NCBI GenBank assembly: GCA_048595255.1
Contig: JBMDWK010000025.1
Location: 4,342 to 68,341 of the forward strand
Source: Sphingobacterium sp.
GTDB taxonomy: Bacteria > Bacteroidota > Bacteroidia > Sphingobacteriales > Sphingobacteriaceae
DNA: 64,000 bases
Direction of reading: 5' to 3'
Of this stretch, positions 2,492 to 62,294 are shown piece after piece (the first letter of the stretch is position 1; every line of letters begins with the position of its first letter). The notes under the pieces are model-generated. The model ran no database searches. It saw nothing but the letters and a program-made list of their open reading frames with translations, and had not been told where the DNA came from. The translations under genes were made by a program, and so were the position numbers.

Positions 2492-2532
2492 AAATAACAT
2501 AGCAGCATTAACTAACGGATTAGAAGGATAGA

Positions 2533-10293: not shown

Positions 10294-10307
10294 AAATTTT
10301 TAGAATC

Positions 10308-11921: not shown

Positions 11922-11939
11922 CCCATAATGATTCAATTT

Positions 11940-12623: not shown

Positions 12624-12639
12624 TTTAAAATGAAAAGTT

Positions 12640-13818: not shown

Positions 13819-16800
13819 ATGATGGTACTTATAAAAATAATTTCTAAGATTTTGCTGACATTAATAATAGTGTGTTTTTCTAATATGGTGAAGGCACAAA
13901 GTGGTGACCAAATACTGGATGGTATTGGTGAGACAGGAATGGTTTCTCGCTACATCTTCAATGGTGATCTTAAAGATTGGTCGCGCAATAACTTACATGG
14001 AAATTATCAGGGTGGTCAGCCAAAATTTGTATCTGATCCAAAGTTCAATAAAGTATTATCTTTTGAAAATAAAAAGGAGGCAATATTATCCCTACCGAGC
14101 GACGTATTATTGAATATCGAATCTTTAAGTATTTCAGCATGGGTGTTCTCAAAATCCAATACAAAAGCACAGACTATTTTGGACTTTGGAAAGAATAATA
14201 ATTCTTTGCTTCACGTCTTTCAAGCGAAAGGTAAGCTATGTCTTTCTTTTGCGGGGAATGTCATAGAAGGTACTGCTTTACCCTTGAATAAATGGTCTCA
14301 TCTAGTTGTCGTGTTAGATGCTCCTGCAAAATCCATAGGCCTATATGCCGACAACAAGCTTTTGGTCGAAATGACCGATATAAATATAGACTTAACAAAA
14401 CTATTCGGTGCAAAATCTGTTGACGGTACTACGCTTTGGATAGGAAATTCGCCAGCTAAAAAAGAATCTTCTCTTCAGGCTTTGTTGCATGATTTTAGAA
14501 TATATCGTGTACCGCTCAGTAAGAGACAGATAGCTGGGATCTATAATAATGTGGTAAAAGGAGTGCGGCAAGATGAAGCACGTATGGGAAAGGTAGAAGA
14601 CAATCTTCAAGACTTTCCACTCACACAATCTCAGCTTTATAATAGTTATTTGGTCAATGTATCGGATGTGGAAGTAGAAACGCAAGTGGGCGAATTGCCA
14701 AGATTACCAAGCTATATACAAGGTGAATATAATGGAAATATGGTCGGACCTAAAGTGCGTGTAATCTGGCCCTCACCTATAGATAATGCTGAAGTATTAA
14801 AGGCTGGTCAATATACCATTACGGGTAAAATACCAGGTTCGTCTCTTATTCCTAAAGCTGTTGTTACTGTTAAATCAAAAGTTCAAGGTAATGCTCCGTC
14901 TATAAAATTGGCTGCTTTCCCACTCGAGCAAGTTTCTTTAAATAATGATGCGAATAGTCAGCAGACTAAATTTATTGAGAATAGAGACAAATTTTTAGGA
15001 ACATTAGCCAATACAGATCCTAATTCGTTTTTGTATATGTTTCGCAATGCCTTTGGACAAGCCCAACCCGCAGGTGCTAAACCGCTAGGAGTATGGGACA
15101 GCCAAGACACAAAATTGCGCGGACATGCTACTGGACATTATCTAACGGCATTGGCACAGGCTTATGCGAGCACAAAAGCAGATAAGAAACTAAATGAGAA
15201 TTTTTCGCAAAAGATGTCCTACATGGTGGATGTTTTATACCAATTAGCGCAACTTTCCGGTACAGCAAATAGCAAAGGGGAGTCCGTATCGGATCCTTTG
15301 GCTGTTCCGATAGGACCTAACAAGGAGACTTATGACTCAGATTTAAGTGTAGAAGGAATCCGTACAGATTATTGGAATTGGGGTAAAGGATTTATAAGTG
15401 CTTATCCACCAGACCAATTTATTATGTTGGAAAAAGGCGCTAAATATGGCGGTCAGAAAAATCAGGTTTGGGCTCCATATTATACATTACACAAGATTTT
15501 AGCAGGACTATTGGATGTATACATAGTAAGTGGGAATCAAAAAGCGTTGGATATCGCAGTAGGCATGACAGATTGGTTGCATCTGCGCTTGAATGCTCTA
15601 CCTAAAGAAACATTGATCGCCATGTGGAATACCTACATCGCAGGCGAATTTGGTGGTATGAATGAGACTTTAGCTCATCTCGCAGCTATTACTAAGGATA
15701 ATAAATATCTTAAAACAGCACAGCTTTTTGATAATATAGACTTGTTCTTCGGAAATGCAGAGCATACACATGGTCTTGCCAAAAATGTAGACTCATTCCG
15801 CGGATTGCATGCTAATCAACATATCCCTCAGATTGTAGGAAGTATTGAGATGTACCGTGTGTCGAATATGGAAGATTATTACAAAGTCGCAGATAACTTT
15901 TGGTACAAAGCGGTAAATGATTACATGTATAGTATTGGCGGTGTAGCTGGAGCACGCAACCCAGCCAATGCAGAGTGTTTTACAAAAGAGCCTTCTACGC
16001 TGTATGAGAATGGTTTTTCGGCAGGTGGACAGAACGAAACATGTGCAACTTATAATATGCTCAAATTAACTTCTAACCTATTCATGTATGATCAAAAGGC
16101 AGAGTATATGGATTATTACGAACGCGCTTTATATAATCATATTTTAGCATCGGTTGATGAGCATACACCAGCAAACACATACCATGTGCCACTCCGTCCA
16201 GGGTCGATCAAGCAATTCGGCAACCCAAATATGACAGGTTTTACCTGTTGTAATGGAACCGCAATAGAAAGTAATACGAAACTTCAAACAGCTATTTATA
16301 ATAAAAGTATAGACAATCAATCGTTGTATGTCAATTTATATATACCATCTACTTTGGATTGGAAAGAGCGTAATGTAATTATCGAACAGATTACTAATTT
16401 CCCTAAAGAAGATAATACAAGCTTGGTAGTAAAAGGAGAAGGTAATTTTACTATCAACCTGCGTCTACCACAATGGGCTAAAAAAGGCTTTACTGTAAAG
16501 ATTAATGGTAAGCAAGAAATAGTGAAAGCAGAAGTAGGCACCTATTTGGCTTTGCAACGACATTGGAAGAATGGGGATACTATTGAATTACAAATGCCTT
16601 TTGAATTCCATTTGGATCCTGTGATGGACCAGCAAAATATAGCGAGTTTGTTCTATGGCCCTATACTATTGGCTGCACAAGAGCCTGAGGCACGCGTAGA
16701 TTGGAGAAAAGTGACTTTGGATGCCAAAGATTTGAACAAGACGATCCAAGGAGATCCAAAAACTTTAGAGTTTACTATAGATGGGGTAAAATTCAAACCA

Positions 16801-16854
16801 TTCTATGACACCTATGGCAGGCATTCTGTCTACCTTGACGTAACTTTAAAATAA
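13819..16854 (+). CDS. GH146 (GH127-like) beta-L-arabinofuranosidase with N-terminal LamG-like and Ig-like domains
   Basis: Signal peptide; LamG-like region; 'LRGHATGHYL', 'EFGGMNE', 'LHANQHIP', 'NETCATYNMLKL', 'FTCCNGT' (Glu/3xCys Zn site). Confidence 0.88.
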   Translation: MMVLIKIISKILLTLIIVCFSNMVKAQSGDQILDGIGETGMVSRYIFNGDLKDWSRNNLHGNYQGGQPKFVSDPKFNKVLSFENKKEAILSLPSDVLLNIESLSISAWVFSKSNTKAQTILDFGKNNNSLLHVFQAKGKLCLSFAGNVIEGTALPLNKWSHLVVVLDAPAKSIGLYADNKLLVEMTDINIDLTKLFGAKSVDGTTLWIGNSPAKKESSLQALLHDFRIYRVPLSKRQIAGIYNNVVKGVRQDEARMGKVEDNLQDFPLTQSQLYNSYLVNVSDVEVETQVGELPRLPSYIQGEYNGNMVGPKVRVIWPSPIDNAEVLKAGQYTITGKIPGSSLIPKAVVTVKSKVQGNAPSIKLAAFPLEQVSLNNDANSQQTKFIENRDKFLGTLANTDPNSFLYMFRNAFGQAQPAGAKPLGVWDSQDTKLRGHATGHYLTALAQAYASTKADKKLNENFSQKMSYMVDVLYQLAQLSGTANSKGESVSDPLAVPIGPNKETYDSDLSVEGIRTDYWNWGKGFISAYPPDQFIMLEKGAKYGGQKNQVWAPYYTLHKILAGLLDVYIVSGNQKALDIAVGMTDWLHLRLNALPKETLIAMWNTYIAGEFGGMNETLAHLAAITKDNKYLKTAQLFDNIDLFFGNAEHTHGLAKNVDSFRGLHANQHIPQIVGSIEMYRVSNMEDYYKVADNFWYKAVNDYMYSIGGVAGARNPANAECFTKEPSTLYENGFSAGGQNETCATYNMLKLTSNLFMYDQKAEYMDYYERALYNHILASVDEHTPANTYHVPLRPGSIKQFGNPNMTGFTCCNGTAIESNTKLQTAIYNKSIDNQSLYVNLYIPSTLDWKERNVIIEQITNFPKEDNTSLVVKGEGNFTINLRLPQWAKKGFTVKINGKQEIVKAEVGTYLALQRHWKNGDTIELQMPFEFHLDPVMDQQNIASLFYGPILLAAQEPEARVDWRKVTLDAKDLNKTIQGDPKTLEFTIDGVKFKPFYDTYGRHSVYLDVTLK

Positions 16855-16890: not shown

Positions 16891-16921
16891 ATCCCTCAGA
16901 ACAATTTCTGTTCTGAGGGAT
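16891..16921. terminator. Hairpin between convergent genes (bidirectional terminator)
   Basis: ATCCCTCAGAACA-atttc-TGTTCTGAGGGAT, a 13-bp perfect stem. Confidence 0.8.
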
Positions 16922-16931
16922 TTTAGTAGAG

Positions 16932-18329
16932 CTATGAGAGATTAGCATCCCGATAATTTTCGATTTCGTCTATAGATTGAAATAGATGAGGGCCTAAAGT
17001 GCGATAGCCATCTTCAGTAATTACATAGTTATCTTCAATACGGATACCTCCAAAGTCTTTATATTTTTCTAATTGGTTATAATTGATAAATTCTGCATGC
17101 TTTCTTTCCGCGGTCCACATATCAATTAGTGTAGGGATGAAATAAATCCCTGGCTCTACGGTAAGCACATTCCCGGTGTTTAATTTTTTTGCTAATCGCA
17201 GAGATTTCCATCCGAAAGTTTTAGTGTCTTTAGGCTCTTCGTCTATGTAACCTACGTATTGCTCTCCCAAATCTTCCATATCATGCACGTCCAATCCCAT
17301 CATATGACCTGTGCCACATTGGAAAAACAGCGTGAAAGCATTGGATTCTACAGCATCGTCTACATTTCCTTGGACGATTCCTAAATCTTTCAGTCCTTCC
17401 ATTAAAGTCGTTACAGAGCGGAGGTGAACATCGCGGAATTTGGTCTGAGGAGCTAGCATACTGCTAGCAGATTGGATAGCAGCATGCACTATGCTATATA
17501 TATCCCGTTGGACTGGTGTAAATTTATTCGCCACAGGATAAGTACGTGTTAAATCTGCAGCATAACCTTTATCCGTTTCGCAGCCTGAGTCATTTAAGAC
17601 CATGTCGCCCAAAGATAATAGGTGATGGCTATGCAGATTGTGCAATATTTCGCCATGCTTTGTGACTATAGGCGGATATGCAAATGTACAGCCGTGGTCT
17701 TCAGCATAGTGACGCATCACATTGATGATTTCATATTCTTTCATGCCTGGCTGGGTAGCAAGCATTGCCAATTTGTGCATTTCTACAGTAACCGCTAGCG
17801 CTTTTTCAATATCTTCAATCTCTTGTTTTTCTTTGACTGATCGTTGACTTACTACTGCTTTTATAAAAGGAATAGAAGGCTGTAATTGTGAAATAGGTTT
17901 TTGTATTAATTGTGAAAGTAAAATTTTATTGTAAGCTTGATAAGGAGGTAGATAATGAACAGTTCGATCTTGCTTAATAACTTTTTCTACATAATCAAAT
18001 ATCTCTTTTTTGGGGACAGTTTTTTGAATACCTGATTTATGAGCCTTCTCTTTTAGAGTTTCTAATTTTCCCGTCCATATGATGTCATCTATGCTCGCTT
18101 CATCTCCAAAAAGGATGGTTTCATTTGAATCCAAATCTAGTACAACGTAAATTTCCGGAGCGTTGATGCCAAAATAATACAAAAAACTGCTATCCTGTCT
18201 GAAAGGATAGCAGTTGTGTTCGAAATTAATAGGGCTCTCTTTATTCGTTAAAAATAGAAGAATTCCCTTTGAATCGATGTTATGTATTAATTGTTGTCTA
18301 CGTCTAATGTAAGTTTCAGTCGAAAACAT
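16932..18329 (-). CDS. pepP: Xaa-Pro aminopeptidase (M24B), cytoplasmic
   Basis: Pita-bread metal ligands: 'LHN', 'DSGCE', 'DLTRT', 'GHMMGLDVHD', 'TVEPGIYF', 'GIRIEDN'. No signal peptide. Confidence 0.92.
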   Translation of the reverse strand: MFSTETYIRRRQQLIHNIDSKGILLFLTNKESPINFEHNCYPFRQDSSFLYYFGINAPEIYVVLDLDSNETILFGDEASIDDIIWTGKLETLKEKAHKSGIQKTVPKKEIFDYVEKVIKQDRTVHYLPPYQAYNKILLSQLIQKPISQLQPSIPFIKAVVSQRSVKEKQEIEDIEKALAVTVEMHKLAMLATQPGMKEYEIINVMRHYAEDHGCTFAYPPIVTKHGEILHNLHSHHLLSLGDMVLNDSGCETDKGYAADLTRTYPVANKFTPVQRDIYSIVHAAIQSASSMLAPQTKFRDVHLRSVTTLMEGLKDLGIVQGNVDDAVESNAFTLFFQCGTGHMMGLDVHDMEDLGEQYVGYIDEEPKDTKTFGWKSLRLAKKLNTGNVLTVEPGIYFIPTLIDMWTAERKHAEFINYNQLEKYKDFGGIRIEDNYVITEDGYRTLGPHLFQSIDEIENYRDANLS

Positions 18330-18331
18330 AT

Positions 18332-21043
18332 TTATATTTTTTTTAATAAAATAGTTGTAGTCCCTTTTGGAATAATGTACTTACCGTTAGAATTTCTTTT
18401 GAAACCTTCCAACATATAACCACTTTGTTCATTCAAAGATAGAATTATGTTGTCGATATCTATATTGTTGACTTTACTATGGAGTGCAAGTGTTACTTCT
18501 TTAGATTTAATATCATATGTAATGTTGTTGATTTCCCCCACATCAGTTGTTATCCATAGATTTTCTTCCGCTAAAAATATTCTAGCTTGTGATGCTGTAG
18601 TGATTTCAACAGAAATAGTATTTTGATTTTCGGTCAAATTACCAGAAAATGCTAACCAACCGAATTCAGGATGATTAATAATATAAGTGCCGGAATTAAC
18701 AGCATAACCATAAAATCCACTACCGTAATCCCCTGATATTCCATCAATAGCTAAGGTAGAAGGATAAGAGTGGAAAGCTGCTGGTCCAAAACCATCTTCC
18801 GTCACATTCGCTAGTGCCCCCATTGTTCCTGCATGTCCGACACGAAGGAGGTAAAAATCCTCTGGTTTGGATCGATATTCATGTAATACCGGAATAGCGT
18901 TTAATGCAGATCCGTAATGATGCAATTGTCGCTCGATGCGTGATAATTTCCCCCCATATACAAAGTCCCAATACCGGCGTGCACTTCCATTATAACCCCA
19001 ATGAGGTACAGTAGGCATATAGGCTAGGATAGCATTTAGCGTTACTAAGGCTTTATCATCAAAGCCAAAATATTTTGACCACAAATACACTTCTTCCTGT
19101 CCCGTAGAATCCCAAGGCATCTCACTGCCAAATGGATAATTCAGTGTACGCCAATGTTCGGCTCTCTTGCGCATAGTCGCTTCCAAATGATTTGCTTCCG
19201 CTGTTAATCCTTCATTTTTCAGATCATTCAGGATAAACAAAAATACACTACCTTCCATCTGCCCGAATTGAGCATAATAGGGCGCCTTTTCGACCATAGC
19301 TATCACTGTATGGTAAGCGCGTTGCAGGTATATAGACCAATCCTCTTCAGTAACCAAATTTTTATAATTCCTGCTCAATTTATATAGCACCCAATGAGCA
19401 GCTGCTACGTGCGGATAGTTGTACGAACGTCCGATGTTGTCAGCTTCTTTTTTAGGCCAAGCGGACCAAGTTTCCCAATTAATATCTTTACTGTATGTCC
19501 CTGCAGGCATAGAATCGGGTTCATAATAGAACAAACTTTTTACTACACCATATTTATTTTTGCCTTCTTTGTGCTGTATGCGACCAAATAGAGTTTCGTT
19601 TGTAAAGCGTTTTAATTTATTAATCTCTTGAGGCTCGGGTTGTAGCAATTGTTTCATTATAGCTGCGAGCCAACTTGCAGCACCAGCTTCATCACTTAGA
19701 CCTGCATACCAAGCCCTTTTCTCTTGCGTAATGTGTGATTTTGTTTCATAATCATAAGAAATAACCGAAGGCGATCGACCGAATAAATCATTTGGATTTT
19801 CATACCACTGTACTGTCGTCAAGAAATGACCTAAATCCTTGACCACATCTTTTTCGGATTTAATAATTTTATAATGCACCGTTTGTATACTTCCATCTGA
19901 GTAAGTAATTTCTACACGCGCACGTCCCCATTTTCTTCCTTTTATATTATACTTCGTCCACTTGTTAGTGGTGCTAGGCTCTTTTTTCAGTTCTAAGGCA
20001 TCAGTAGGATAAGATTGAATGGATTTAATAGCTTTTGTGGACTTCAAAAATAGTTGAGCGGTGTTATTTATAGGAAGGACATAGCCCGGCACACCCACTG
20101 CAACAGGTCGCTGTTGGCGAATTAATTCATCTTCAATCTCCTTAATGCTCGGAGCAAGAGTAAAACGCAGAGCAAAAGATTTGCTTTGACCGGGCCTTAG
20201 AATGGTTGAGGTAGGTGTATTCCATTGTTCCACACCTTTCCACTCGGTCTCCGCATAAGCCTTGCTATGAATTACCCATTCATGAAATCCTTCAAATGTA
20301 ATACTGCGTGGAGTAGGGTCTGTATTTAGGGGATTATAAGCTTCGAAACCCGCATTTTCGTAGGGTAATACTAATAAACTTGGACCCTTTCCGTGCAATC
20401 GGTTAACCTGCAAATAGCCAGCATCTTTACCGATATATGGATCAAAAAACACATTATCCATGTGTGCCGTATCTAAGTTTTTCCAATCCAAATTGTTGTT
20501 GAAAATCATCGGAATACCTAAACCTCCGATTTCAAAGGATTCATTTGTAGTGTTTTTTATTTCAAATTTTAGGACTAGGTCACCGTTATTATTTTGCCAA
20601 TAACGGTGAACCTGCAAGGGGATATCTCCGAGAGCAGCTGATATATTTGCCGCTGCAAGTGATTTTTTGTCTACTAATGTCTTTACATCAACTCTTTTCG
20701 TGGAAGATGAATATTTTTTCCACTCCGAAGTTCCTACTTGTTTGATACTGATATTTAAATCCCCTAAGTGATAAAATTTATCCCTATCTCTTTTATCCAG
20801 CAATTCGTCGGGTGTATAATCAAACTTTGAGTCGGTTTTTAATTTGAGGCTTGACACCGTTTGTGAAGAATTAAGAATTGATAGATTCAAGCTGCTAAGC
20901 GAAAAATCTTTAGTTCCTTTATCAATGCCCAGTGTGGCAGGTTGTTTTTTTACTTCCTCCCAAAATGGATTTTGTGCGAATACGTTGTGCGAAGCGGCAA
21001 AAGTTAATAAGTAAAATGCTAAATAGAGGATGATGCTCTTCAT
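18332..21043 (-). CDS. DUF5695-like secreted protein, putative glycoside hydrolase of unknown specificity
   Basis: Signal peptide. Motifs 'GLSDEAGA', 'RSYNYPHV', 'GSEMPWDSTGQE', 'WGYNGSARRYWDF', 'ERQLHHYGS' recalled as DUF5695; no HMM was run. Confidence 0.65.
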   Translation of the reverse strand: MKSIILYLAFYLLTFAASHNVFAQNPFWEEVKKQPATLGIDKGTKDFSLSSLNLSILNSSQTVSSLKLKTDSKFDYTPDELLDKRDRDKFYHLGDLNISIKQVGTSEWKKYSSSTKRVDVKTLVDKKSLAAANISAALGDIPLQVHRYWQNNNGDLVLKFEIKNTTNESFEIGGLGIPMIFNNNLDWKNLDTAHMDNVFFDPYIGKDAGYLQVNRLHGKGPSLLVLPYENAGFEAYNPLNTDPTPRSITFEGFHEWVIHSKAYAETEWKGVEQWNTPTSTILRPGQSKSFALRFTLAPSIKEIEDELIRQQRPVAVGVPGYVLPINNTAQLFLKSTKAIKSIQSYPTDALELKKEPSTTNKWTKYNIKGRKWGRARVEITYSDGSIQTVHYKIIKSEKDVVKDLGHFLTTVQWYENPNDLFGRSPSVISYDYETKSHITQEKRAWYAGLSDEAGAASWLAAIMKQLLQPEPQEINKLKRFTNETLFGRIQHKEGKNKYGVVKSLFYYEPDSMPAGTYSKDINWETWSAWPKKEADNIGRSYNYPHVAAAHWVLYKLSRNYKNLVTEEDWSIYLQRAYHTVIAMVEKAPYYAQFGQMEGSVFLFILNDLKNEGLTAEANHLEATMRKRAEHWRTLNYPFGSEMPWDSTGQEEVYLWSKYFGFDDKALVTLNAILAYMPTVPHWGYNGSARRYWDFVYGGKLSRIERQLHHYGSALNAIPVLHEYRSKPEDFYLLRVGHAGTMGALANVTEDGFGPAAFHSYPSTLAIDGISGDYGSGFYGYAVNSGTYIINHPEFGWLAFSGNLTENQNTISVEITTASQARIFLAEENLWITTDVGEINNITYDIKSKEVTLALHSKVNNIDIDNIILSLNEQSGYMLEGFKRNSNGKYIIPKGTTTILLKKI

Positions 21044-21129: not shown

Positions 21130-21193
21130 CAAATATGTTTATTATTCTGCTGCTGAATGACTAAATATTATCCCATTATACTTTATTTTTAGC
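21130..21193 (-). promoter_or_regulatory. DUF5695-pepP promoter: direct-repeat site plus degenerate -7 box
   Basis: On the minus strand: GCTAAAAA (21193-21186), GATAATAT (21172-21165), CATATTTG (21137-21130). Confidence 0.55.
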
Positions 21194-21268
21194 CGGTTGC
21201 ATTTTTTGTTGCTTATTTCTAGTTAGAATATTTAAATTTAATATAACTTCTAACCGAATTAATGAACC

Positions 21269-22153
21269 ATGAAAGCTTTACACTATAACTTAAACATCCC
21301 GAATGATCGAACTATTTTCGTTCAAGATGAGGTATTGGATTCATTTTATCCCTATTTTCATAAGCATCCAGAGTATCAGTTGGTATGGGTCGCTGAGGGG
21401 AGTGGTAAACTCATTGTAGATAACAATATGCATGAGTTTGATTGTGGTGAAGTATTTTTGATAGGAGCAAATCAACCTCATGTTTTCAAAGGGGATAAGC
21501 TTCCACTTCATGTGAGAACAGTTTCGGTATTTTTTAATTTAAAGGGCTCCTTGGAATATATTTTTAACCTACCTGAACTCAAAAGTTTGCAAAATTTCCT
21601 TATCACTAACAGCCATGGCTTTCGAGTTCCAAAACATTATTTAAAAGATGTATGTGATAGCATAGAAATTTTGAAAAATTCGGATGGTGCAGATAGACTA
21701 GTGAATTTTATATACTTATTGAAACTATTAAATATTATCTCTAAAGATGTATCCCCCCTCTCAGGATCTATCATTAAAGAGATCAATGATATAGCATCTA
21801 TTCGAATCATAAGTTTGTGCACGTATATCAAGAATAATTTTCGTAAAGAACTCAATCTTAATGATATTGCAGAGAAGGCTAATCTGACTCCTCAAGCTTT
21901 CTGTCGGTATTTCAAAAAATGTACAGGTAAAACATTTGTATGTTATTTGAATGAATTACGTGTTAGTGAGGCATGTAGACTTTTGGTTAATGAACGATAT
22001 GATTGCATCTCAATGATTGCGTATAACAGTGGCTTCAATAGTATAACTAATTTTAATCGTGTATTTCGTTCTATTACAGGAGTTTCGCCAAAGGAATATG
22101 TTTTAAGATATCAAAGTTCAATAAATCAAAAACCTTTACAAGAAGTTAATTAA
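21269..22153 (+). CDS. AraC-family transcriptional regulator (cupin sensor + double HTH)
   Basis: N-terminal 'HKHPEYQL' cupin; C-terminal 'LTPQAFCRYFKK' and 'IAYNSGFNSITNFNRVF'. Confidence 0.95.
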   Translation: MKALHYNLNIPNDRTIFVQDEVLDSFYPYFHKHPEYQLVWVAEGSGKLIVDNNMHEFDCGEVFLIGANQPHVFKGDKLPLHVRTVSVFFNLKGSLEYIFNLPELKSLQNFLITNSHGFRVPKHYLKDVCDSIEILKNSDGADRLVNFIYLLKLLNIISKDVSPLSGSIIKEINDIASIRIISLCTYIKNNFRKELNLNDIAEKANLTPQAFCRYFKKCTGKTFVCYLNELRVSEACRLLVNERYDCISMIAYNSGFNSITNFNRVFRSITGVSPKEYVLRYQSSINQKPLQEVN

Positions 22154-22209: not shown

Positions 22210-22236
22210 AGAGTAAGTTATTAATTGAAAATAGAT

Positions 22237-23160
22237 ATGGCAAATTTAAATTGGGAAGGAATTTATCCCGCAGTTTTAACACCTTTTGATGAACAATACA
22301 ATATAGACTTTGCAATGTTTGCGAAGAATACCGAAGCACAAATCCAAGCAGGTGTGCATGGGATTATTCTTGCTGGATCGCTAGGAGAAGCAAGTGCTTT
22401 GTCTCAAGATGAAAAGTTTTTATTGCTCGAGAAGGCTCTGGAGATAGTTAATGGAAGAGTGCCTGTCATTCTAAATTTAACAGAGAACACCACAAAGGAT
22501 GCTGTCGAATTTGCCCAGAAAGCTGAAAAGCTTGGCGCAGATGGTCTAATGGTATTGCCGCCCATGCGTTATAAGGCAGATGATCGTGAAGTAGTAGCTT
22601 ATTATAAAGCCATTGCACAGAGTTCATCTCTACCCATTTTAGTTTATAACAACCCGGTTGACTATGCTACTTATATCACATTGGAAATGATGGAAGATTT
22701 ATTAGAGGAGCCAACCATTCAGGCAGTAAAAGAATCTACTCGGGATTTGGCAAATGTAACTCGTTTGAAAAATAGATTTTCAAACCGCTTGAAAATTTTA
22801 GGTGGAGTTGATACGATTTGTTTAGAATCTTTAATGTTGGGGGCTGATGGTTTAGTAGCAGGGCTGGTTGATGCATTTCCTAAAGAAACAATGGCTCTTT
22901 ACAACTTAGTAAAAGCTGGTGAATATCAAAAAGCTGTAGAAATCTATCGCTGGTTCATGCCTTTGTTAGAATTGGATATTCATCCCAAATTAATACAATA
23001 TATCAAATTAGCAGCAAGCTATGAGGGAATCTCTACGCCATATACGCGCGCTCCTCGTCTGCCTTTAATAGGGGAAGAGAAAGAAAGAATCGAAAGGATT
23101 ATTGAAGATGCTATTGCTATAAGGCCGCAACTAACCGTATATAATTATGCTACAACCTAA
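22237..23160 (+). CDS. DapA-family protein, probable delta1-pyrroline-4-hydroxy-2-carboxylate deaminase (LhpC-like)
   Basis: GSLGE (instead of GTTGE), YNNP, KES Schiff-base Lys; operon context. ATG 22237 preferred over TTG 22225. Confidence 0.82.
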   Translation: MANLNWEGIYPAVLTPFDEQYNIDFAMFAKNTEAQIQAGVHGIILAGSLGEASALSQDEKFLLLEKALEIVNGRVPVILNLTENTTKDAVEFAQKAEKLGADGLMVLPPMRYKADDREVVAYYKAIAQSSSLPILVYNNPVDYATYITLEMMEDLLEEPTIQAVKESTRDLANVTRLKNRFSNRLKILGGVDTICLESLMLGADGLVAGLVDAFPKETMALYNLVKAGEYQKAVEIYRWFMPLLELDIHPKLIQYIKLAASYEGISTPYTRAPRLPLIGEEKERIERIIEDAIAIRPQLTVYNYATT

Positions 23161-24598
23161 TATAAATGAGCTTGAAATGGTAGTGGCAGAAGCAGTAGAT
23201 GGATACAAATATCTACAGCAATTGTCACGAAAGGATAGGGCATCATTAATGGGTGCTATCGCCTCTAAAATTGAGTCTTTGGGCGAAGAACTCATCCAAG
23301 TGGCTCATCAAGAGACCAACTTACCTTTCGCACGCCTAAATGGCGAAAAGGCCAGAACTATTCATCAATGGCGTTTATATTCTGATGTAACGGCTGCGGG
23401 CGTATTATTGGATGCGCGTATAGATAATGGTGAGGGTAAGAACGATATCCGTAAATACAATGTAGGTTTGGGTCCAGTTGTTGTATTTGGAGCTTCAAAT
23501 TTTCCCTTTGCTTTTTCTACAGCCGGAGGGGATACAGCAAGTGCAATAGGGGCGGGTTGTTCTGTGATTTATAAAGAACACCCCGGACACCCACGGACTT
23601 CGCAAATTATGGCACAAGCTATATATGCTGGATTAGAAGCTTTTGGCGCTCCCAAATCAGTTTTTGGATATGTCGCTGATGCTTCGCATGAGACTGGACA
23701 AAATTTAGTAAGACATCCTAAAGTAAAGGCTGTGGCTTTTACAGGTTCTTTCAAAGGTGGAATGGCTTTATACAAAATCGGAGCAAATAGACCAGATCCA
23801 ATTCCTGTATTTGCAGAAATGGGTAGTTTGAATCCTGTAATTGCCTTGCCAAAATATTTACAATCGAATGCAGATCCTTTTGCCAAAGATTATATTGCAT
23901 CATTAACATTAGGTTGTGGTCAATTTTGTACTAATCCCGGTCTTTTATTTATAGTTAAGAATGAAAATTCAGAGCAACTTAAGAATGCTATCAAAGCTGA
24001 ATTAGCTTCTGTGTCAGTTATTCCGATGTTAAATACTGGAATACGACAATCCTATGATGCAGGACTGCGTTTGTTACATTCTATTGAAGCAGCACATAGC
24101 GTAGCACAGACAGAATCAACAGAGCGTATTCCTTCAGCGACTGTATTTACCATATCCGCATCTAATTTTATTACCAATAAGCATTTACATGAGGAAGTAT
24201 TTGGTCCATGTGGAATTATCGTTGAATGCGATTCAATTGCTCAATTGGAAGAAAGTATAGAAGTATTAGGAGGTCAATTGACAATTACATTTGCTGCTTC
24301 CCCCGAGGACTTTAAGGAAAATCCATCTTTAATAGCTCGGGTACAGGAAAAATGTGGTCGTTTACTTTTCAATGGCATGCCGACCGGAGTAGATGTAGTT
24401 TACGCCATGCAACATGGAGGCGTATTTCCGTCTACCACGGATAGTCGCTTTACATCAGTCGGTCCAGATGCTATGAAAAGATTTTTGAGGCCGGTTAGTT
24501 TTCAGAATTGGCCAGATGATTTATTGCCGGCGGAATTACAAAATGCTAACCCTACAAAAATTGAACGAATCGAAAATAATAAACGTATATCACCTTAA
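23147..24598 (+). CDS. alpha-ketoglutarate semialdehyde dehydrogenase (ALDH, NADP+)
   Basis: 'VFGASNFPFAFST', 'EMGSLNP', 'GQFCTNPG', 'EEVFGP'; start overlaps the upstream gene. Confidence 0.85.
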   Translation: MLQPNINELEMVVAEAVDGYKYLQQLSRKDRASLMGAIASKIESLGEELIQVAHQETNLPFARLNGEKARTIHQWRLYSDVTAAGVLLDARIDNGEGKNDIRKYNVGLGPVVVFGASNFPFAFSTAGGDTASAIGAGCSVIYKEHPGHPRTSQIMAQAIYAGLEAFGAPKSVFGYVADASHETGQNLVRHPKVKAVAFTGSFKGGMALYKIGANRPDPIPVFAEMGSLNPVIALPKYLQSNADPFAKDYIASLTLGCGQFCTNPGLLFIVKNENSEQLKNAIKAELASVSVIPMLNTGIRQSYDAGLRLLHSIEAAHSVAQTESTERIPSATVFTISASNFITNKHLHEEVFGPCGIIVECDSIAQLEESIEVLGGQLTITFAASPEDFKENPSLIARVQEKCGRLLFNGMPTGVDVVYAMQHGGVFPSTTDSRFTSVGPDAMKRFLRPVSFQNWPDDLLPAELQNANPTKIERIENNKRISP

Positions 24599-24603
24599 TT
24601 TAT

Positions 24604-25602
24604 ATGAAGAAGACCTTTACCTGTATCGATTCACATACATGTGGCTGTCCAGTTCGCTTAGTCGCGGGTGGTGGCCCATTTTTAAAAGGTAATAGCATGA
24701 TGGAGCGTAGGCTCCATTTTATGCAAGAATTCGATTGGATCCGCAAAGGCCTCATGTTTGAGCCACGTGGTCATGATATGATGAGCGGAAGTATTTTGTA
24801 TCCACCCCTTGATGAACTAAATGATGTGGGTGTTTTATATATTGAAACGAGTGGCTGTCTTCCAATGTGTGGTCATGGTACCATTGGGACGGTGACCATA
24901 GCCATAGAAGAAGGTCTGATTACTCCAAAAGTTCCTGGTAAACTTCGTTTGGAAACACCTGCGGGATTAGTATTGGTGGATTACAAGCAAGAAGGAGAAA
25001 AGGTTACTTCGGTAAAACTTACCAACGTAAAATCATTTCTTTATAAAGAGGCTTTGCATGTAGATTGTCCCGATTTAGGAGATATTTATGTGGATGTGGC
25101 TTATGGGGGCAATTTTTATGGTATAATCGATCCCCAAACTAACTTCTCAGACATTTCAGACTTTACAGCAGCAAAGCTCATTCATTATGGCAAAATTATT
25201 CGTCGTTTATTAAATGAAAAATATGAATTTATTCATCCAGAAGACGCTAATATTCATGGGTTGAGCCATATTCAATGGACAGGAAAACCTACAAAAAGCA
25301 ATTCTTCAGGACGTAACGCCGTACTTGTGGGTGAGAACGCATTGGATAGATCTCCATGTGGTACTGGTACCTCAGCACGTATGGCCCAATGGTTTGCTAA
25401 GGGCATGTTGAGAGCAGGAGAACAGTTTATACACGAAAGTTATATTGGTTCACAATTTACAGGTAAGATAGAAGGTGTGACGGAAGTTGCTGGACAGCAA
25501 GCTATTATACCATCGGTAGAAGGCTGGGCACGGATTACAGGATATAATACAATTTTTATAGACGATCAAGATCCTTACAAAGAAGGTTTTCAAGTTATTT
25601 AA
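24604..25602 (+). CDS. 4-hydroxyproline 2-epimerase (proline racemase family)
   Basis: Two catalytic Cys in 'MCGHGT' and 'DRSPCGTG'; 'EPRGHDMMSG'. Confidence 0.9.
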   Translation: MKKTFTCIDSHTCGCPVRLVAGGGPFLKGNSMMERRLHFMQEFDWIRKGLMFEPRGHDMMSGSILYPPLDELNDVGVLYIETSGCLPMCGHGTIGTVTIAIEEGLITPKVPGKLRLETPAGLVLVDYKQEGEKVTSVKLTNVKSFLYKEALHVDCPDLGDIYVDVAYGGNFYGIIDPQTNFSDISDFTAAKLIHYGKIIRRLLNEKYEFIHPEDANIHGLSHIQWTGKPTKSNSSGRNAVLVGENALDRSPCGTGTSARMAQWFAKGMLRAGEQFIHESYIGSQFTGKIEGVTEVAGQQAIIPSVEGWARITGYNTIFIDDQDPYKEGFQVI

Positions 25603-25628
25603 AAGCACAATAAGAATTTATTTAGAAG

Positions 25629-26882
25629 ATGAATAAAGGTACGGTACTCATAGTTGGAGCCGGGATAGCAGGATTATCTACAGCTTATTATTTAGTCAAT
25701 GATGGATGGAATGTGCATATCATTGAGCAAAATTCGTTAGATAATAATTGTTCGTATGGAAATGCCGGAATGATTGTACCCAGCCATTTTACGACTATGG
25801 CATCGCCAGGTATTGTGGCCCAAGGGATTCGTTGGATGTTTGACAAAAAAAGCCCGTTTTACGTTCGCCCTGCTTTAAATTGGAATTTGATGGATTGGGG
25901 TATGAAGTTTATCAAATATGCCAACAAGCGTCATGTGGATGCACATGTGGAATCTCTACGTGATCTGCATGTTTACAGCAGCAAATTATATGATTTATTG
26001 AATAATGATTCCGCATTCGATTTTGAATTAGAACAAAGTGGTATTATGATGCTTTACAAAACTAAGGCTGTGGAGCATGAAGAAATAGAATTAGCAAAGC
26101 GGGCACAGGACTTGGGTTTGGATGTAGAAATCAGAACAGCGGATGAAATGCAAGCATTGGAGCCAAACGTGAAGTTTGATGTATTGGGCGGTACATATTA
26201 TAAATGTGATGGAAAGCTTAATCCAATGAAATTGATGAACCAGTTAATTGGATATCTGAAAAATAGAGGAGTTCAATTTTATGAACATACAACGGTCAAA
26301 GGCTATAAGATTTCTGGTAGGCAAGTAAAAGAAATAGTCACAGATAAAGGTAATTTCCAAGGCGATGAATTTGTAATTGCTCCTGGTGCTAATTTGATGG
26401 AATTATCAAATAAACTAAAGCTAAAATTACCCTTAATGCCTGGCAAAGGATATTCATTTATGTACACACCTCCATCAGATATAAAATTGCAACATGCTGC
26501 TTTGCTATTGGAAGCAAAAGTTGCGGTGACACCTATGGATGGAAAAATAAGATTTGGCGGAACAATGGAACTCGGCTCACCAAATAATAAAATATATCAA
26601 AACCGGGTAGAAGGTATTGTCAGCTCAATTCCAAAATATCTTAAAAACCTCCATGTTGAGTACCCGAAGCAAGATATATGGTATGGATACAGACCCTGTA
26701 CTCCTGATGGTCTCCCTTACTTAGGAAGAACTGACAAATATGATAATATAACTATTAATGCTGGCGCAGGTATGATGGGATTAAGCCTAGGACCAGCAAT
26801 GGGTAAAGCTATAAGTGATATTCTTGCCCATAGAAAATTTAAAACAAATATAGCCTCTTTCACACCAGATCGGTTTGGATAA
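25629..26882 (+). CDS. FAD-dependent D-amino acid dehydrogenase, probable cis-4-hydroxy-D-proline dehydrogenase
   Basis: GAGIAG FAD motif, 'SYGNAG', 'PGKGYS', 'GYRPCTPDGLP'; operon context. Confidence 0.85.
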   Translation: MNKGTVLIVGAGIAGLSTAYYLVNDGWNVHIIEQNSLDNNCSYGNAGMIVPSHFTTMASPGIVAQGIRWMFDKKSPFYVRPALNWNLMDWGMKFIKYANKRHVDAHVESLRDLHVYSSKLYDLLNNDSAFDFELEQSGIMMLYKTKAVEHEEIELAKRAQDLGLDVEIRTADEMQALEPNVKFDVLGGTYYKCDGKLNPMKLMNQLIGYLKNRGVQFYEHTTVKGYKISGRQVKEIVTDKGNFQGDEFVIAPGANLMELSNKLKLKLPLMPGKGYSFMYTPPSDIKLQHAALLLEAKVAVTPMDGKIRFGGTMELGSPNNKIYQNRVEGIVSSIPKYLKNLHVEYPKQDIWYGYRPCTPDGLPYLGRTDKYDNITINAGAGMMGLSLGPAMGKAISDILAHRKFKTNIASFTPDRFG

Positions 26883-26911: not shown

Positions 26912-28663
26912 ATGAACACTGCCAAAACAGCCAATTTAATTCTTACTTTGTTTCTTACCAACACTGTCCTAATGGCGCAAGACTTATATCAACACACTAC
27001 ACCTATTGAACCGCTTGTGATTCAATATGGCCATGATCAGCAAGCTATCAATTACTTTTATGGCCCTATGCCCAAAGGTTGGGGCTATCAACAAGCTGCA
27101 GAGTCACCTGAGCAGATTCAGCGTCTCATCACTTTGGATAATGAATATCTTCGAAAGTTAAAAGATTTCCCTTATTCTCAATTGAATACCAATGGGCAGG
27201 TTGATTATATTTTACTTGATCGTAAGGTGAAATTTGATTTGGAAGCCTTGCAAGAGCAGTTGAAAACCTATGAACGATTGAAAAGTTATGTGCCCTTTGA
27301 TCATATAATCTATGACTTCGAAAAACTTAGAAGACGAGGTACATCGATAAATGGAGAAGAAATAGCGGGAAATTTACAGCATGCCATTAAGCTAGTTAAA
27401 GAAGCTTCTGAAAAATTAAATAATGTAGATGCTATTCCATATGCAGATGTAGGTTTTCTAAAAGAGGTTATTAACTCCTTAAAGCTTCGGTTAACGAGTG
27501 CCTTTGATTTCTATAATGAATACGATCCCCTATTCACTTGGTGGGTACCGGCGCCCTACCAACAGTTATCGGAAGAATTGAACAATTACAGTAAATTGAT
27601 CACCGAAAAGAGCGATTGGAAAGTATTTAATGATGGAAGTAATATTGGAGGTGCTCCAATCGGAAAACAAGCATTCAACAAGCAATTAAAAGATGAAATG
27701 ATTGCTTACACCACAGATGATTTGCTTCGGTTAGCAGAACAAGAATTCGCATGGTGTGAAGCAGAACTTTTAAAAGCTTCACAGGAAATGGGCTTCGGCA
27801 AAGATTGGAAAGCAGCACAAGAAAAAGTTAAAAACACGTATGTTCCTGAAGGAAAGCAACCAGAGCTGATCCTAAAATTATATAACGATGCGCAAGAGTT
27901 TATCCGTAAGCATGATCTGATGGATATTCCAGCACTGGCTGATGAAACTTGGGGAATGATAATGATGACTGCAGAGCGGCAATTGGTGAATCCCTTTTTT
28001 ACAGGTGGACGTGAAATCAGTATTTCGTATCCAACGAATACCATGACACAAGAGCAAAAACTGATGAGTATGCGCGGGAATAATCCTTACTTTTCCCGTG
28101 GAACGGTACAGCATGAACTAAATCCTGGTCATCACTTACAATATTTCATGAATAGAAGATACAAACCTTACCGTGAAAGAGCTTTCAATACGCCATTCTG
28201 GACAGAGGGATGGACCTTGTACTGGGAGTTATTGATGTACGAAAAAGGTTTTGCAAACACGCCAGAAGAAAGAATCGGTATGTTGTTTTGGCGTATGCAC
28301 CGTTGTGCACGAATCACCTTTAGTATCAAATTCCATTTGGGAGAATGGACACCGCAGCAATGTATAGATTATTTGGTAGATAGGGTAGGTTTTGAGCGTG
28401 CGAATGCGCATGGAGAGGTTAAACGTTCATTTGAGGGCTCATATGGTCCATTATACCAATTGGCGTATTTGGTGGGAGGCTTACAAATGATGAGTATTAA
28501 AAAAGAAGTGGTAGATACCGGAAAAATGACTTACAAAGAATTCCATGATCGTGTGATTAAGGAAAATTATATGCCCTTAGAGATGTTACGCGCGATTTTG
28601 ACTGATCAAAAGCTAGCGCCCGATCATCAGACATCTTGGAAGTTTTATCAATTTAAAAGATAA
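26912..28663 (+). CDS. DUF885-family protein (putative zinc metallopeptidase)
   Basis: N-terminal signal-like segment; 'HELNPGHHLQ', 'EGWTLYWE', 'YQLAYLVG' motifs. Confidence 0.75.
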   Translation: MNTAKTANLILTLFLTNTVLMAQDLYQHTTPIEPLVIQYGHDQQAINYFYGPMPKGWGYQQAAESPEQIQRLITLDNEYLRKLKDFPYSQLNTNGQVDYILLDRKVKFDLEALQEQLKTYERLKSYVPFDHIIYDFEKLRRRGTSINGEEIAGNLQHAIKLVKEASEKLNNVDAIPYADVGFLKEVINSLKLRLTSAFDFYNEYDPLFTWWVPAPYQQLSEELNNYSKLITEKSDWKVFNDGSNIGGAPIGKQAFNKQLKDEMIAYTTDDLLRLAEQEFAWCEAELLKASQEMGFGKDWKAAQEKVKNTYVPEGKQPELILKLYNDAQEFIRKHDLMDIPALADETWGMIMMTAERQLVNPFFTGGREISISYPTNTMTQEQKLMSMRGNNPYFSRGTVQHELNPGHHLQYFMNRRYKPYRERAFNTPFWTEGWTLYWELLMYEKGFANTPEERIGMLFWRMHRCARITFSIKFHLGEWTPQQCIDYLVDRVGFERANAHGEVKRSFEGSYGPLYQLAYLVGGLQMMSIKKEVVDTGKMTYKEFHDRVIKENYMPLEMLRAILTDQKLAPDHQTSWKFYQFKR

Positions 28664-28668
28664 ACCAG

Positions 28669-30081
28669 ATGGAAGCGGAAAAACCAATCTTTAAAAAATC
28701 ACTGACGCTTTTGGATGCTACCATGCTGGTGGTGGGTAGCATGATTGGCTCAGGAATTTTTATTGTGACAGCGGATATTGTACGTAATACTGGTTCAGCA
28801 GGATGGATGATGATAATCTGGACAATAAGTGGTATTATGACTTTGATTGCCGCAATAACCTATGGAGAGCTGAGTGCGATGTTTCCAAAAGCAGGAGGTC
28901 AGTATGTCTATTTACGTGAAGCGTACAATCCTTTAGTGAGTTTTGTGTTTGGCTGGACATTTTTTGCAGTTATTCAGACAGCGACAATTGCTGCGGTGGG
29001 GGTAGCTTTTGCCAAATTTACAGCGTATCTGTTTCCCGTATTGGACGAAGACGTGATATTGCTCACGTTAGGGAGTTTCAAAATTTCTTCTGCTCAACTC
29101 TTATCTATAGGTATTATTTTGGTTTTGACATTTATTAATTCAAGAGGTGTCAATGCGGGGAAATGGGTGCAGACGAGTGTTACGTTGTTCAAATTATTAA
29201 GCTTGTCTTTGTTAGTATTATTTGGGTTCTTAGCCTTCAAGCATGAGGTTTGGAATCTGAATTGGCTATCCGCGGACACCTGGACTCTACGCAAACTAAA
29301 CCTTGATGGCTCATTTGAAAACTACAGTACATTCGCCGCTTTAGGCGCTATATCTGCTGCAATGGTAGGGGCACTTTTCAGCAGTGACTCTTGGCATTCT
29401 TCTTCAGCTGTTGCAGGAGAAATAAAGAATCCACAACGAAATATAGGATTAAGTCTGGCTTTAGGAACAATAATCGTAACCATAATTTATCTGCTCACTA
29501 ATCTGATGTACAGTACCGTGCTGGATCTCAATACGATGATCAATGCCCCGAAAGATCGTGTTGCGATGAGCGTAGCACAGGAAATTTTTGGTCCTGTGGG
29601 AATTACTATTCTGGCTATTATGATCATGATTAGCACATTTGGCTGTAACAATGGATTAATTATGGCAGGGGCTAGAGTGTATTATTCAATGGCTGAAGAT
29701 GGATTATTCTTCAAGAAGGCTAAAGGTTTGAATACGTATTCTGTTCCCGGGTATGCGTTATGGATACAAGGATTAGTTTCTTCGCTTTGGTGTTTAAGTG
29801 GTAAATATGGGGATTTACTCGATATGATAACATGTGTAGTGGTGGTATTCTATGTGTTAGCGATTTATGGTGTGATTCGTTTACGAAAGAAAAAACCTAA
29901 TTTAGAACGCCCTTATAAAGCTTTTGGGTATCCGATACTGCCTATACTTTATATAATCATGGGAATGGCTTTTATCATTTCCCTCATATTATTCAAACCA
30001 ACTTATACAATTTTGGGAGCCGTAATAGCACTATTGGGCATTCCCATATATTACCTTATAAAATCTAAGCAACATGATTAG
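28669..30081 (+). CDS. APC-family amino acid permease
   Basis: 'GSMIGSGIF', 'ELSAMFPKAGGQYVYL', about 12 hydrophobic segments. Confidence 0.92.
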   Translation: MEAEKPIFKKSLTLLDATMLVVGSMIGSGIFIVTADIVRNTGSAGWMMIIWTISGIMTLIAAITYGELSAMFPKAGGQYVYLREAYNPLVSFVFGWTFFAVIQTATIAAVGVAFAKFTAYLFPVLDEDVILLTLGSFKISSAQLLSIGIILVLTFINSRGVNAGKWVQTSVTLFKLLSLSLLVLFGFLAFKHEVWNLNWLSADTWTLRKLNLDGSFENYSTFAALGAISAAMVGALFSSDSWHSSSAVAGEIKNPQRNIGLSLALGTIIVTIIYLLTNLMYSTVLDLNTMINAPKDRVAMSVAQEIFGPVGITILAIMIMISTFGCNNGLIMAGARVYYSMAEDGLFFKKAKGLNTYSVPGYALWIQGLVSSLWCLSGKYGDLLDMITCVVVVFYVLAIYGVIRLRKKKPNLERPYKAFGYPILPILYIIMGMAFIISLILFKPTYTILGAVIALLGIPIYYLIKSKQHD

Positions 30082-35516: not shown

Positions 35517-35527
35517 CCCTTACTATT

Positions 35528-50615: not shown

Positions 50616-50699
50616 TGCATTGTTTGATGGGAAAAATCCCTTTAGACAGTACATTAAGTAATTTTTATATTCATAAATAAATAGTATAAAGTGCTAAAT

Positions 50700-51983: not shown

Positions 51984-52021
51984 TAATTAATTAGGAAAAC
52001 GCAATCTTATATACAGCTTAA

Positions 52022-55027: not shown

Positions 55028-55056
55028 TTTTATTCTTTATTTGAAATAAAACAACT

Positions 55057-56547: not shown

Positions 56548-56552
56548 TAGCA

Positions 56553-57717: not shown

Positions 57718-57736
57718 TCTAACATCAATTAAATAA

Positions 57737-58963: not shown

Positions 58964-59005
58964 TATTGAATTGAAAGAAGTTACGTTCAAACGTTTATAT
59001 AAGAA

Positions 59006-60331: not shown

Positions 60332-60356
60332 TTATAGAAGATTTTTATAAAATAAT

Positions 60357-62251: not shown

Positions 62252-62294
62252 TTCCTTAAAAAATTTATAGTAGACAAATATAAATTAGGGCGTA

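Follow-up and report, generated by a model that had tools for sequence, protein, structure and literature searches.

The gene examined here occupies positions 18332..21043, on the minus strand, of a 64,000-nucleotide stretch of Sphingobacterium sp. DNA (GenBank assembly GCA_048595255.1, contig JBMDWK010000025.1, positions 4,342 to 68,341), hereafter the window, and it encodes a 903-aa protein of the DUF5695 family (PF18951). We propose, with a probability of roughly 0.45, that this protein is a periplasmic enzyme that removes sugar from arabinosylated glycopeptides rich in hydroxyproline (Hyp), and that it belongs to a six-hairpin superfamily comprising DUF5695 and the polysaccharide lyase family PL27. 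The proposal builds on what the analysis yielded directly, namely the predicted fold, homology to PL27, conservation of individual residues, a periplasmic targeting signal, a recurrent genomic association, and natural gene fusions; from these, we infer the substrate class, the bond, and the chemistry.

A full-length DUF5695 protein with a signal peptide

The open reading frame (ORF) runs from ATG to TAA, and its product scores 1296 bits to PF18951 (cut-off 25.2) over profile positions 2-850 of 857, i.e., as a full-length family member, in agreement with an earlier note on this DNA that had called it DUF5695-like. No NCBIfam model matched the 903-aa protein. The same note had described the product as secreted and had singled out four acidic/aromatic motifs as conserved. 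All four were found, i.e., LSDEAG (residues 449-454), SEMPWDSTGQEE (640-651), RRYWDF (689-694), and ERQLHHY (704-710), and they are invariant across 45 close homologues and mostly kept in relatives down to 22% identity. As for secretion, reading of the N-terminus by eye (MKSIILYLAFYLLTFAASHNVFA/QN, that is, …NVFA/QN) suggested a Sec type I signal peptide spanning residues 1-23 that has no lipobox Cys, and homologues align with the protein from residue 1. Since the host is diderm, such a signal predicts a periplasmic protein, and it is in this sense that the term secreted should be understood.

The closest named relatives occur in S. litopenaei and S. cavernae (85-87% identity), and the window sequence is present in root, straw, soil, and manure metagenomes. 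The family as a whole comprises 1696 clusters at 50% identity, with 2882-3904 proteins scored at 90% clustering. Pfam lists PF18951 as a 'family of unknown function', with 'DUF5695 domain-containing protein' and 'six-hairpin glycosidase' among the source names, none of which hints at PL27 or at a Hyp/arabinoside setting, and our literature search on DUF5695 retrieved no functional study, the sole mention being unrelated.

Structure and profile comparisons reveal kinship to PL27

An AlphaFold2 (AF2) model of the protein, built on the 45 homologues and with a predicted template modelling (TM) score of 0.84, places an (alpha/alpha)6 barrel between two beta-sandwiches, one N-terminal and one C-terminal. 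The corresponding features are the following:

18332..21043, minus strand: DUF5695 protein coding sequence, 903 aa
20975..21043, minus strand: Sec type I signal peptide, residues 1-23
19856..20923, minus strand: N-terminal beta-sandwich, residues ~41-396, a mutarotase-like super-sandwich in the AF2 model; matched by Foldseek to galactose-mutarotase-like proteins and the 5NO8 N-domain
18695..19693, minus strand: predicted (alpha/alpha)6 helical catalytic domain, residues ~451-783, from AF2, the Foldseek match to 5NO8, and hhalign to PL27; listed as holding all four motifs
18338..18688, minus strand: C-terminal beta-sandwich, residues ~786-902, from AF2, with no counterpart in PL27

The (alpha/alpha)6 fold anticipated by the earlier note is thus what AF2 and Foldseek return, as a six-hairpin barrel with flanking beta-sandwiches. 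The modelled combination of a twelve-helix barrel and an N-terminal super-sandwich is that of the six-hairpin glycosidase-like superfamily (as in GH15/65/94/116). An N-terminal beta-sandwich followed by an (alpha/alpha)6 barrel is also the architecture of PL27 (PMC8377490), and both the model and Foldseek point to this family. Indeed, the top and only strong match of the model in the PDB was 5NO8/5NOK, 'Polysaccharide Lyase BACCELL_00875' (E 3.8e-24, TM score 0.76 relative to the target, 16% identity). Much weaker matches followed, to GH94, GH116, GH149, and GH161 proteins with probability ~1.0 and low global TM scores (E ~1e-6 for the GH94/GH116-type proteins) and to mutarotase-like domains. 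BACCELL_00875 is a founding member of PL27, which groups L-rhamnose-alpha-1,4-D-glucuronate lyases that uncap the side chains of gum-arabic arabinogalactan proteins (AGPs) (PMC8377490). This relationship had been missed by the earlier note, which regarded the protein as a candidate glycosidase; its six-hairpin fold, that of a carbohydrate-active enzyme (CAZyme), agrees with such a label, but the closest characterized relative is a lyase and the label is not established.

Profile comparisons further support this kinship. PDB searches by phmmer and with a profile of the 45 close homologues gave no match to 5NO8 at E<=10. A profile built from 24 divergent DUF5695 representatives reached this structure with E 4.6e-27, alignment by hhalign of the DUF5695 clade of this gene with that of PL27 scored 97.9% probability over 543 columns, and a PL27 hidden Markov model matched the DUF5695 protein with 53 bits. 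Identity to PL27 is 23.6% across 542 aligned positions, the unmatched segments of our protein being an insertion (493-521) and residues 772-903. By the measure of these sequence comparisons, the relation between DUF5695 and PL27 is one of true distant homology, beyond fold resemblance. We did not assign the protein to PL27 itself, because similarity at the family level was not found, the direct searches being silent and PL27 forming a long separate branch in a neighbour-joining tree, and because the gene contexts differ; conversely, PL27 proteins were not taken as full PF18951 members, given that their match to this profile is only 'faint'. PL27 is therefore the sister family of the DUF5695 protein. 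Some Bacteroides PL27 loci also hold a second PL27/DUF5695-like paralogue (723 aa) between GH43 and an esterase (e.g., L082:14932-17103).

The PL27 core is retained with systematic replacements

Comparison of both alignments showed that 33 of the 96 polar residues invariant in PL27 are identical and conserved in this DUF5695 clade, every barrel motif included. The equivalent positions are as follows (DUF5695 clade, then PL27):

D451/E452, D390/E391
K464, K404
R539, R447
Y541/N542/Y543, Y449/N450/Y451
E641, E537
R690, R593
W692/D693, W595/D596
K699, K602
H709/Y710, H612/Y613
R734, R637

Both barrel tyrosines that are invariant in PL27 (Y451 and Y613) are thus kept, as Y543 and Y710. Among DUF5695 members down to 22% identity, Y710 (24/24 diverse members), W682, and E611 are invariant, and R539, E641, D451/E452, D645, and E650 nearly so. 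The acidic residues conserved throughout the family are D451/E452, E641, D645, E650, D767, and D772, in keeping with the conserved catalytic acids that the earlier note had expected of a glycoside hydrolase. On the other hand, seven PL27-invariant residues are systematically replaced (R389 by S450, W453 by H545, S584 by H681, H586 by G683, H594 by Y691, D608 by R705, and W614 by G711), and these may line the pocket. The conserved core and the replaced residues together suggest a catalytic scaffold common with PL27 and a changed specificity. A tyrosine was reportedly proposed as the catalytic base in the founding PL27 study. Judged from sequence alone, lyase and hydrolase chemistry are both plausible.

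Natural fusions link DUF5695 to arabinofuranosidases

In a metagenome-assembled genome of Alkalitalea (L040:9986-15565), DUF5695 is encoded in frame with the catalytic and middle domains of GH127 in an ORF of 1859 aa, recorded on 3 contigs. Another protein of the same clade (P0121, 1713 aa, 1 contig, 55% identical) joins DUF5695 to GH51-type alpha-L-arabinofuranosidase domains, and in five other Bacteroidales loci a separate GH127-like gene lies immediately downstream of DUF5695. Further clade members carry LamG modules. Save for these modules and probable eukaryotic gene-model artefacts, the partners in other long DUF5695 members were uninformative. Two long family representatives (P0171 and P0169) have exportin-like or ShK domains, which suggests either an origin in eukaryotes (probably fungi or protists) or artefacts of gene modelling; we read them as a sign that the family reaches beyond bacteria.

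Relatives recur beside arabinose, Hyp, and proline peptidase genes in two phyla

To describe the genomic setting of the relatives, all ORFs within 10 kb of the gene were clustered, without bias, in 80 Bacteroidota loci with relatives at 55-87% identity, which were then collapsed to 23 genus-level groups. At this level, GH127/146-like genes accompany DUF5695 in 17 groups, proline-specific peptidases in 18, and Hyp catabolism in 8, with at least one of these in 21. Over the 80 individual loci, the most frequent neighbours encode the Hyp epimerase (38), DPP-IV, D-Hyp dehydrogenase, and aldehyde dehydrogenase (35 each), a dihydrodipicolinate synthase (DHDPS)-like protein and GH127/146-like proteins (33 each), SusC and SusD (30 and 29), and AraC (27). 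DUF885 follows in 24 loci, M24 in 21 (with DUF5695-M24 adjacency in 21-22), M1 peptidase in 19, GH43-LamG in 18, DUF6055 in 12, and prolidase-type M24 in 11. The DUF6055 protein, which also carries DUF4859 (~614 aa; L004:16472-18316 and 11 other loci), is another uncharacterized family tied to the pathway.

Gene order is also informative. Marine Flavobacteriaceae show the co-directional series Hyp epimerase, DAO, DPP4, GH146-like, DUF885, DUF5695, and GH43, and in Pedobacter antarcticus DUF5695 comes first, followed by M24, M1, and the genes of Hyp catabolism. The clade of this gene spans Bacteroidota and Acidobacteriota, whose members are ~50% identical to it, and the Pyrinomonas locus runs from AraC through Hyp epimerase, D-Hyp dehydrogenase subunits, DHDPS-like, aldehyde dehydrogenase, and DPP4 to DUF5695. 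The seven acidobacterial loci have GH127 nearby in four cases, GH31 in five, DPP4 in two, and proline dehydrogenase in one, and in two acidobacterial loci DUF5695 is part of a cluster that also holds arabinose genes, GH39, and GH127. In one of these two, L087, which was scored with NCBIfam, ribulokinase (552 bits vs 428), L-ribulose-5-P 4-epimerase (349 vs 257), and a GguC/AraD1 protein all pass the curated NCBIfam cut-offs; these araB/araD/GguC genes indicate that the sugar harvested by the acidobacterial cluster is L-arabinose, not rhamnose. The association of homologues with GH127/146 and Hyp genes, on which the earlier note had made its proposal depend, is therefore strong and extends to two phyla, and the GH127 and GH51 fusions add to it. 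GH31 is found beside or near DUF5695 in five of the seven acidobacterial loci (L088, L090, L087, L089, and L091) and GH97 in four Bacteroidota loci; these enzymes could supply alpha-galactosidase activity for Gal-alpha-Ser or Gal-alpha1,3-Ara.

The surrounding locus

In the window itself, positions 1-37141 form one polysaccharide-utilization-type locus (PUL), and the rest consists of housekeeping genes. Besides DUF5695, the PUL contains the following features:

32-538, plus strand: C-terminal fragment of a GH127/146 gene, with the DUF4986/DUF6805 domains typical of GH127/146 C-termini; the ORF leaves the left edge of the window
560-6938, plus strand: two GH43 genes and one GH2 gene
7162-13629, plus strand: SusC/SusD and two lipoproteins
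13819..16854, plus strand: predicted GH146-like beta-L-arabinofuranosidase, with the Pfam GH127 catalytic and middle domains (PF07944) and N-terminal LamG and Big_4
16893..16919, between the convergent GH146-like and M24 genes: hairpin with a perfect 11-bp stem, CCCTCAGAACA-ATTTC-TGTTCTGAGGG, then a T-run; probably a bidirectional terminator
16932..18329, minus strand: M24B Xaa-Pro peptidase (AMP_N and Peptidase_M24 by Pfam), with no signal peptide
~21155..21212, in the divergent region between DUF5695 and AraC: block of ~55 nt conserved across Sphingobacterium species by alignment
21269..22153, plus strand: AraC-family regulator (cupin and HTH_18 by Pfam), divergent from DUF5695
22225..26882, plus strand: 4-Hyp catabolic genes, i.e., DHDPS-like deaminase, aldehyde dehydrogenase, 4-Hyp epimerase, and D-amino-acid (D-Hyp) dehydrogenase
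26912..32308, plus strand: DUF885 protein, amino-acid permease, and DPP-IV (S9) peptidase
32571..37141, plus strand: second SusC/SusD pair, end of the locus

The earlier note had placed the gene in a beta-L-arabinofuranoside locus, and the GH146-like gene, the GH127/146 fragment, and the 4-Hyp epimerase with its companions bear this out. The nearest PDB relatives of the GH146-like gene are BT0349 GH146 (5OPJ, 244 bits) and Bll3HypBA1 (8K7X), and the epimerase scores 573 bits against an equivalog cut-off of 376. The fragment at the left edge implies that the PUL extends past the window with a second gene of beta-L-arabinofuranosidase type. By similarity to solved structures (GH43a to 3QED, GH43b to 3QZ4, and GH2 to 5T9A), the two GH43 proteins are nearest to alpha-L-arabinofuranosidase-type enzymes and the GH2 protein to beta-galactosidases. 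The PUL is rich in peptidases and has few galactan-active enzymes, with neither a beta-1,3/1,6-galactanase set nor an alpha-galactosidase family evident. Type I signal peptides were found on DUF5695, both GH43s, GH2, GH146-like, DUF885, and DPP-IV, and none on M24 or the Hyp enzymes.

The gene next to DUF5695 had been described as a Xaa-Pro aminopeptidase lying 2 bp away and translationally linked to it. The distance is correct, as the TAA stop of DUF5695 is followed by AT and then by the ATG of M24. The AMP_N and Peptidase_M24 domains agree with the proposed activity, but the score to the NCBIfam Xaa-Pro aminopeptidase model (207) is below the equivalog cut-off of 465. As for the linkage, the 2-bp gap is all that speaks for it; with no signal peptide on M24, the two products would reside in different compartments, periplasm and cytoplasm, and the tight spacing denotes co-expression only.

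The gene had also been said to carry a shared operator. The short words common to the PUL promoter regions, TATTCTGC in three of them and AATTGATTA in two, are not enriched over shuffles and are absent from the orthologous promoters of 12 other Sphingobacterium loci, and we discarded them as a shared operator. The conserved block at 21155-21212 is a candidate regulator/promoter site, with no recurrence above chance elsewhere in the window.

Other details of the PUL are given here for completeness. The DHDPS-like gene is listed with a TTG start (22225) that is probably wrong, as an ATG lies four codons downstream at 22237. This gene overlaps that of aldehyde dehydrogenase by 14 nt (23147-23160), and the permease and DPP4 genes overlap by 8 nt (30074-30081), which suggests tight operonic coupling in both cases. 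The lipoproteins encoded after SusD (11928-13629), one of 231 aa with no Pfam match and one of 329 aa with a weak DUF5007 match, are conserved together in 9 loci and probably bind glycans or glycopeptides at the cell surface for the PUL. The DUF885 protein (26912-28663) carries a signal peptide and lacks an HExxH motif. Outside the PUL, a cluster of respiratory genes (for multihaem cytochrome c, an Fe-S protein, an NrfD-like protein [alternative complex III-like], COX2, COX1, and CtaA; 50691-63338) and the gliding-motility gene gldB (40257-41294) are consistent with a Sphingobacteriaceae chromosome.

A proposed role in deglycosylation of Hyp-rich glycopeptides and its alternatives

In the pathway that we favour, arabinofuranosylated Hyp-rich glycopeptides of extensin type, and possibly also of AGP type, would be imported via the SusC/D pairs. 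The DUF5695 enzyme would then probably act in exo mode and from a pocket, as PL27 does, working beside the beta-L-arabinofuranosidases (GH146/GH127) and alpha-L-arabinofuranosidases (GH43) on a linkage that those do not cut. The candidate linkage lies in the inner Hyp-linked arabinoside chain, where the enzyme could release arabino-oligosaccharides, a GH121-like role, or open the innermost bond between arabinofuranose (Araf) and Hyp, Araf-beta-Hyp. Once stripped, the peptide would be digested by DPP-IV and DUF885 in the periplasm and later by M24 in the cytoplasm, and free Hyp would enter the epimerase/dehydrogenase pathway. The putative catalytic centre, common with PL27, would comprise Tyr710/His709, Arg690/Trp692/Asp693, Lys699, Arg539/Asn542/Tyr543, Asp451/Glu452, and Glu641/Asp645. 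Because peptidases abound in the PUL and galactan enzymes are few, Hyp-arabinosides of extensin type, which have no uronic acid, fit better than type II arabinogalactan; on account of this fit and of the arabinose context, we consider hydrolysis somewhat more likely than beta-elimination.

Several observations weigh against this interpretation. The sole characterized relative is a lyase, and the retention of its core, with the invariant His-Tyr pair and a number of Arg/Lys residues in it, makes beta-elimination a serious alternative. The predicted local distance difference test score (pLDDT) of the model falls below 50 in the loops with the most conserved motifs (440-453, 678-711, and 753-773), which limits what can be read from it on the geometry of the pocket. 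Moreover, 21 of the 80 Bacteroidota loci have no marker neighbour within 10 kb, e.g., Sphingobacterium loci with only GH43-LamG and SusC/D. RNA evidence is fragmentary, as metatranscriptome matches are confined to short, low-depth contigs, none of which crosses the DUF5695-M24 junction. Finally, GH127 HypBA1 is said to cleave free Ara-Hyp already, and this step is thus not strictly 'missing'.

The retained core would favour a PL27-type lyase of altered specificity, which would act on the side chains of AGPs and beta-eliminate L-Araf or L-rhamnose from O-4 of their glucuronic acid. The PUL would then be an AGP locus. We regard this main alternative as unlikely yet deserving of attention. Besides the strong structure and profile match to PL27, its only characterized homologue, the protein conserves H709/Y710 (H612/Y613 in PL27), R539, R690, and K699, and AGPs are themselves rich in Hyp. 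Furthermore, LamG-bearing GH146 and GH39 are known AGP side-chain enzymes (PMC10850190, PMC8939339), both seen in these loci. On the other hand, among the PL27-invariant residues already described as replaced, R389, H586, H594, and D608 give way to S, G, Y, and R, respectively, the clusters catabolize L-arabinose, not rhamnose, and the PUL of the window has no evident beta-1,3/1,6-galactanase set. PL27 genes sit in a different setting, with an HTCS regulator, SusC/D, GH28, GH43, an esterase, and GH115, and with no Hyp or peptidase genes. Neither uronate-active nor unsaturated-uronate genes, including GH88/GH105 and Kdu-type genes, recur beside the DUF5695 clade across 87 loci; this absence is only weak counter-evidence, since true PL27 loci also have no GH88/105 within 10 kb.

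The tie to peptidases could alternatively mean that the enzyme cleaves the sugar-amino-acid bond itself, as the earlier note had suggested, either by hydrolysing Araf-beta-1-O-Hyp in its peptide context or by taking galactose off Ser, which we deem improbable. DUF5695 is indeed associated with proline peptidases and Hyp catabolism more tightly than with any single GH family, as in Pedobacter, where it heads an operon with M24, M1, and Hyp catabolism. In addition, 4-O-glycosyl-Hyp and 4-O-glycosyl-glucuronate are each built on a ring that bears a carboxylate and is glycosylated at O-4, and a +1 subsite derived from PL27 might be adaptable to Hyp. Chemistry divides the two variants: the O-glycoside of Hyp is gamma to the carboxylate and beta-elimination is impossible there, whereas Ser-O-Gal has the H-C(alpha)(C=O)-C(beta)-O-sugar arrangement of a 4-O-substituted uronate, on which PL27-style elimination would be possible. 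No alpha-galactosidase family is evident in the PUL of the window, in favour of the galactose variant, but GH31 (5/7 acidobacterial loci) or GH97 (4 Bacteroidota loci) could give this activity elsewhere, and the arabinofuranosidase fusion partners suggest work within the arabinoside chain. The boldest version of this idea, improbable to the same degree, is that the DUF5695 clade founds a new activity at the glycan-peptide junction, either as the first dedicated Araf-beta-Hyp glycopeptide hydrolase or as an O-glycopeptide lyase that eliminates galactose from Ser with the Tyr/His/Arg of PL27, its +1 subsite having been adapted from glucuronate to an amino acid that bears a carboxylate. We give the smallest chance to a non-protein, arabinose-rich polysaccharide target, i.e., pectic arabinan, side chains of rhamnogalacturonan I (RG-I), or arabinoxyloglucan, in which case the Hyp and peptidase link would reflect co-regulated scavenging of wall debris. 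GH146 BT0349 does belong to an RG-I PUL (PMC10850190), the GH51 and GH127 fusion partners and the GH43 neighbours are generic arabinan enzymes, the 21 markerless Bacteroidota loci have no Hyp or peptidase markers within 10 kb, and GH31 or GH127 is all that lies nearby in some acidobacterial loci. Against such scavenging stand the proline-specific peptidases within 10 kb in 18/23 genus-level groups, the full Hyp pathways adjacent in two phyla, and the co-directional and tightly spaced genes of Flavobacteriaceae and Pedobacter. We retain the removal of sugar from arabinosylated Hyp-rich glycopeptides as the preferred explanation.

Relation to known systems and significance

PL27 (BACCELL_00875, 5NO8/5NOK; BT0263) resembles the DUF5695 protein in its beta-sandwich and (alpha/alpha)6 barrel, in its core residues, and in having loci that degrade plant Hyp-rich glycoproteins (HRGPs); PL27 removes AGP caps (PMC8377490). 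It differs in length (694 aa vs 903 aa), as DUF5695 adds the C-terminal beta-sandwich and the 493-521 insertion, and in context, with GH28, GH115, and esterases for PL27 and peptidases, Hyp catabolism, GH127/146, and arabinose genes for DUF5695. GH121 HypBA2, known from Bifidobacterium longum and Xanthomonas, likewise combines an (alpha/alpha)6 barrel with flanking beta-sandwich domains; its substrates are Hyp-linked beta-arabino-oligosaccharides, on which it acts ahead of GH127, and its structural neighbours are GH142 and GH63 (PMC7263609). Its role is of the kind proposed here for the DUF5695 enzyme, in phyla where no GH121 was seen. The DUF5695 protein nevertheless gave no PDB sequence match to GH121, HypBA2 was outside the top 50 Foldseek matches, and neither family membership nor the Glu383/Asp515/Glu713 triad was found; besides, GH121 is extracellular and cell-anchored, whereas the DUF5695 protein is predicted to be periplasmic. 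GH127/GH146 enzymes (HypBA1, BT0349, and Bll3HypBA1) have a six-hairpin barrel, act in the same pathway, and provide the most conserved CAZyme neighbour and one fusion partner. They use a Zn-Cys3Glu centre with a Cys nucleophile (PMC10850190), and the DUF5695 protein has no PF07944 match, no Zn-Cys3Glu motif, and no search-level homology to them. HRGP degradation in Bifidobacterium proceeds through GH43 HypAA, GH121 HypBA2, and GH127 HypBA1 (PMC7263609); the DUF5695 protein fits this logic and belongs to none of the three families. Collectively, these comparisons indicate that the DUF5695 clade probably represents PL27-related CAZymes of new specificity, and a new CAZy family or subfamily.

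In plant cell walls, and in root and straw litter as well, HRGPs constitute a major fraction that is rich in nitrogen and carbon. To our knowledge, the deglycosylation of extensins and other HRGPs by bacteria outside Bifidobacterium and Xanthomonas is poorly known. The locus described here outlines a complete putative route for HRGP utilization, from SusC/D import to Hyp catabolism. If hydrolytic, DUF5695 would join GH145/PL42 as a hydrolase/lyase switch on one scaffold. Kinship to PL27, the link to arabinose, Hyp, and peptidase genes in two phyla, and the arabinofuranosidase fusions turn an anonymous domain family into a specific enzyme candidate that can be tested cheaply.

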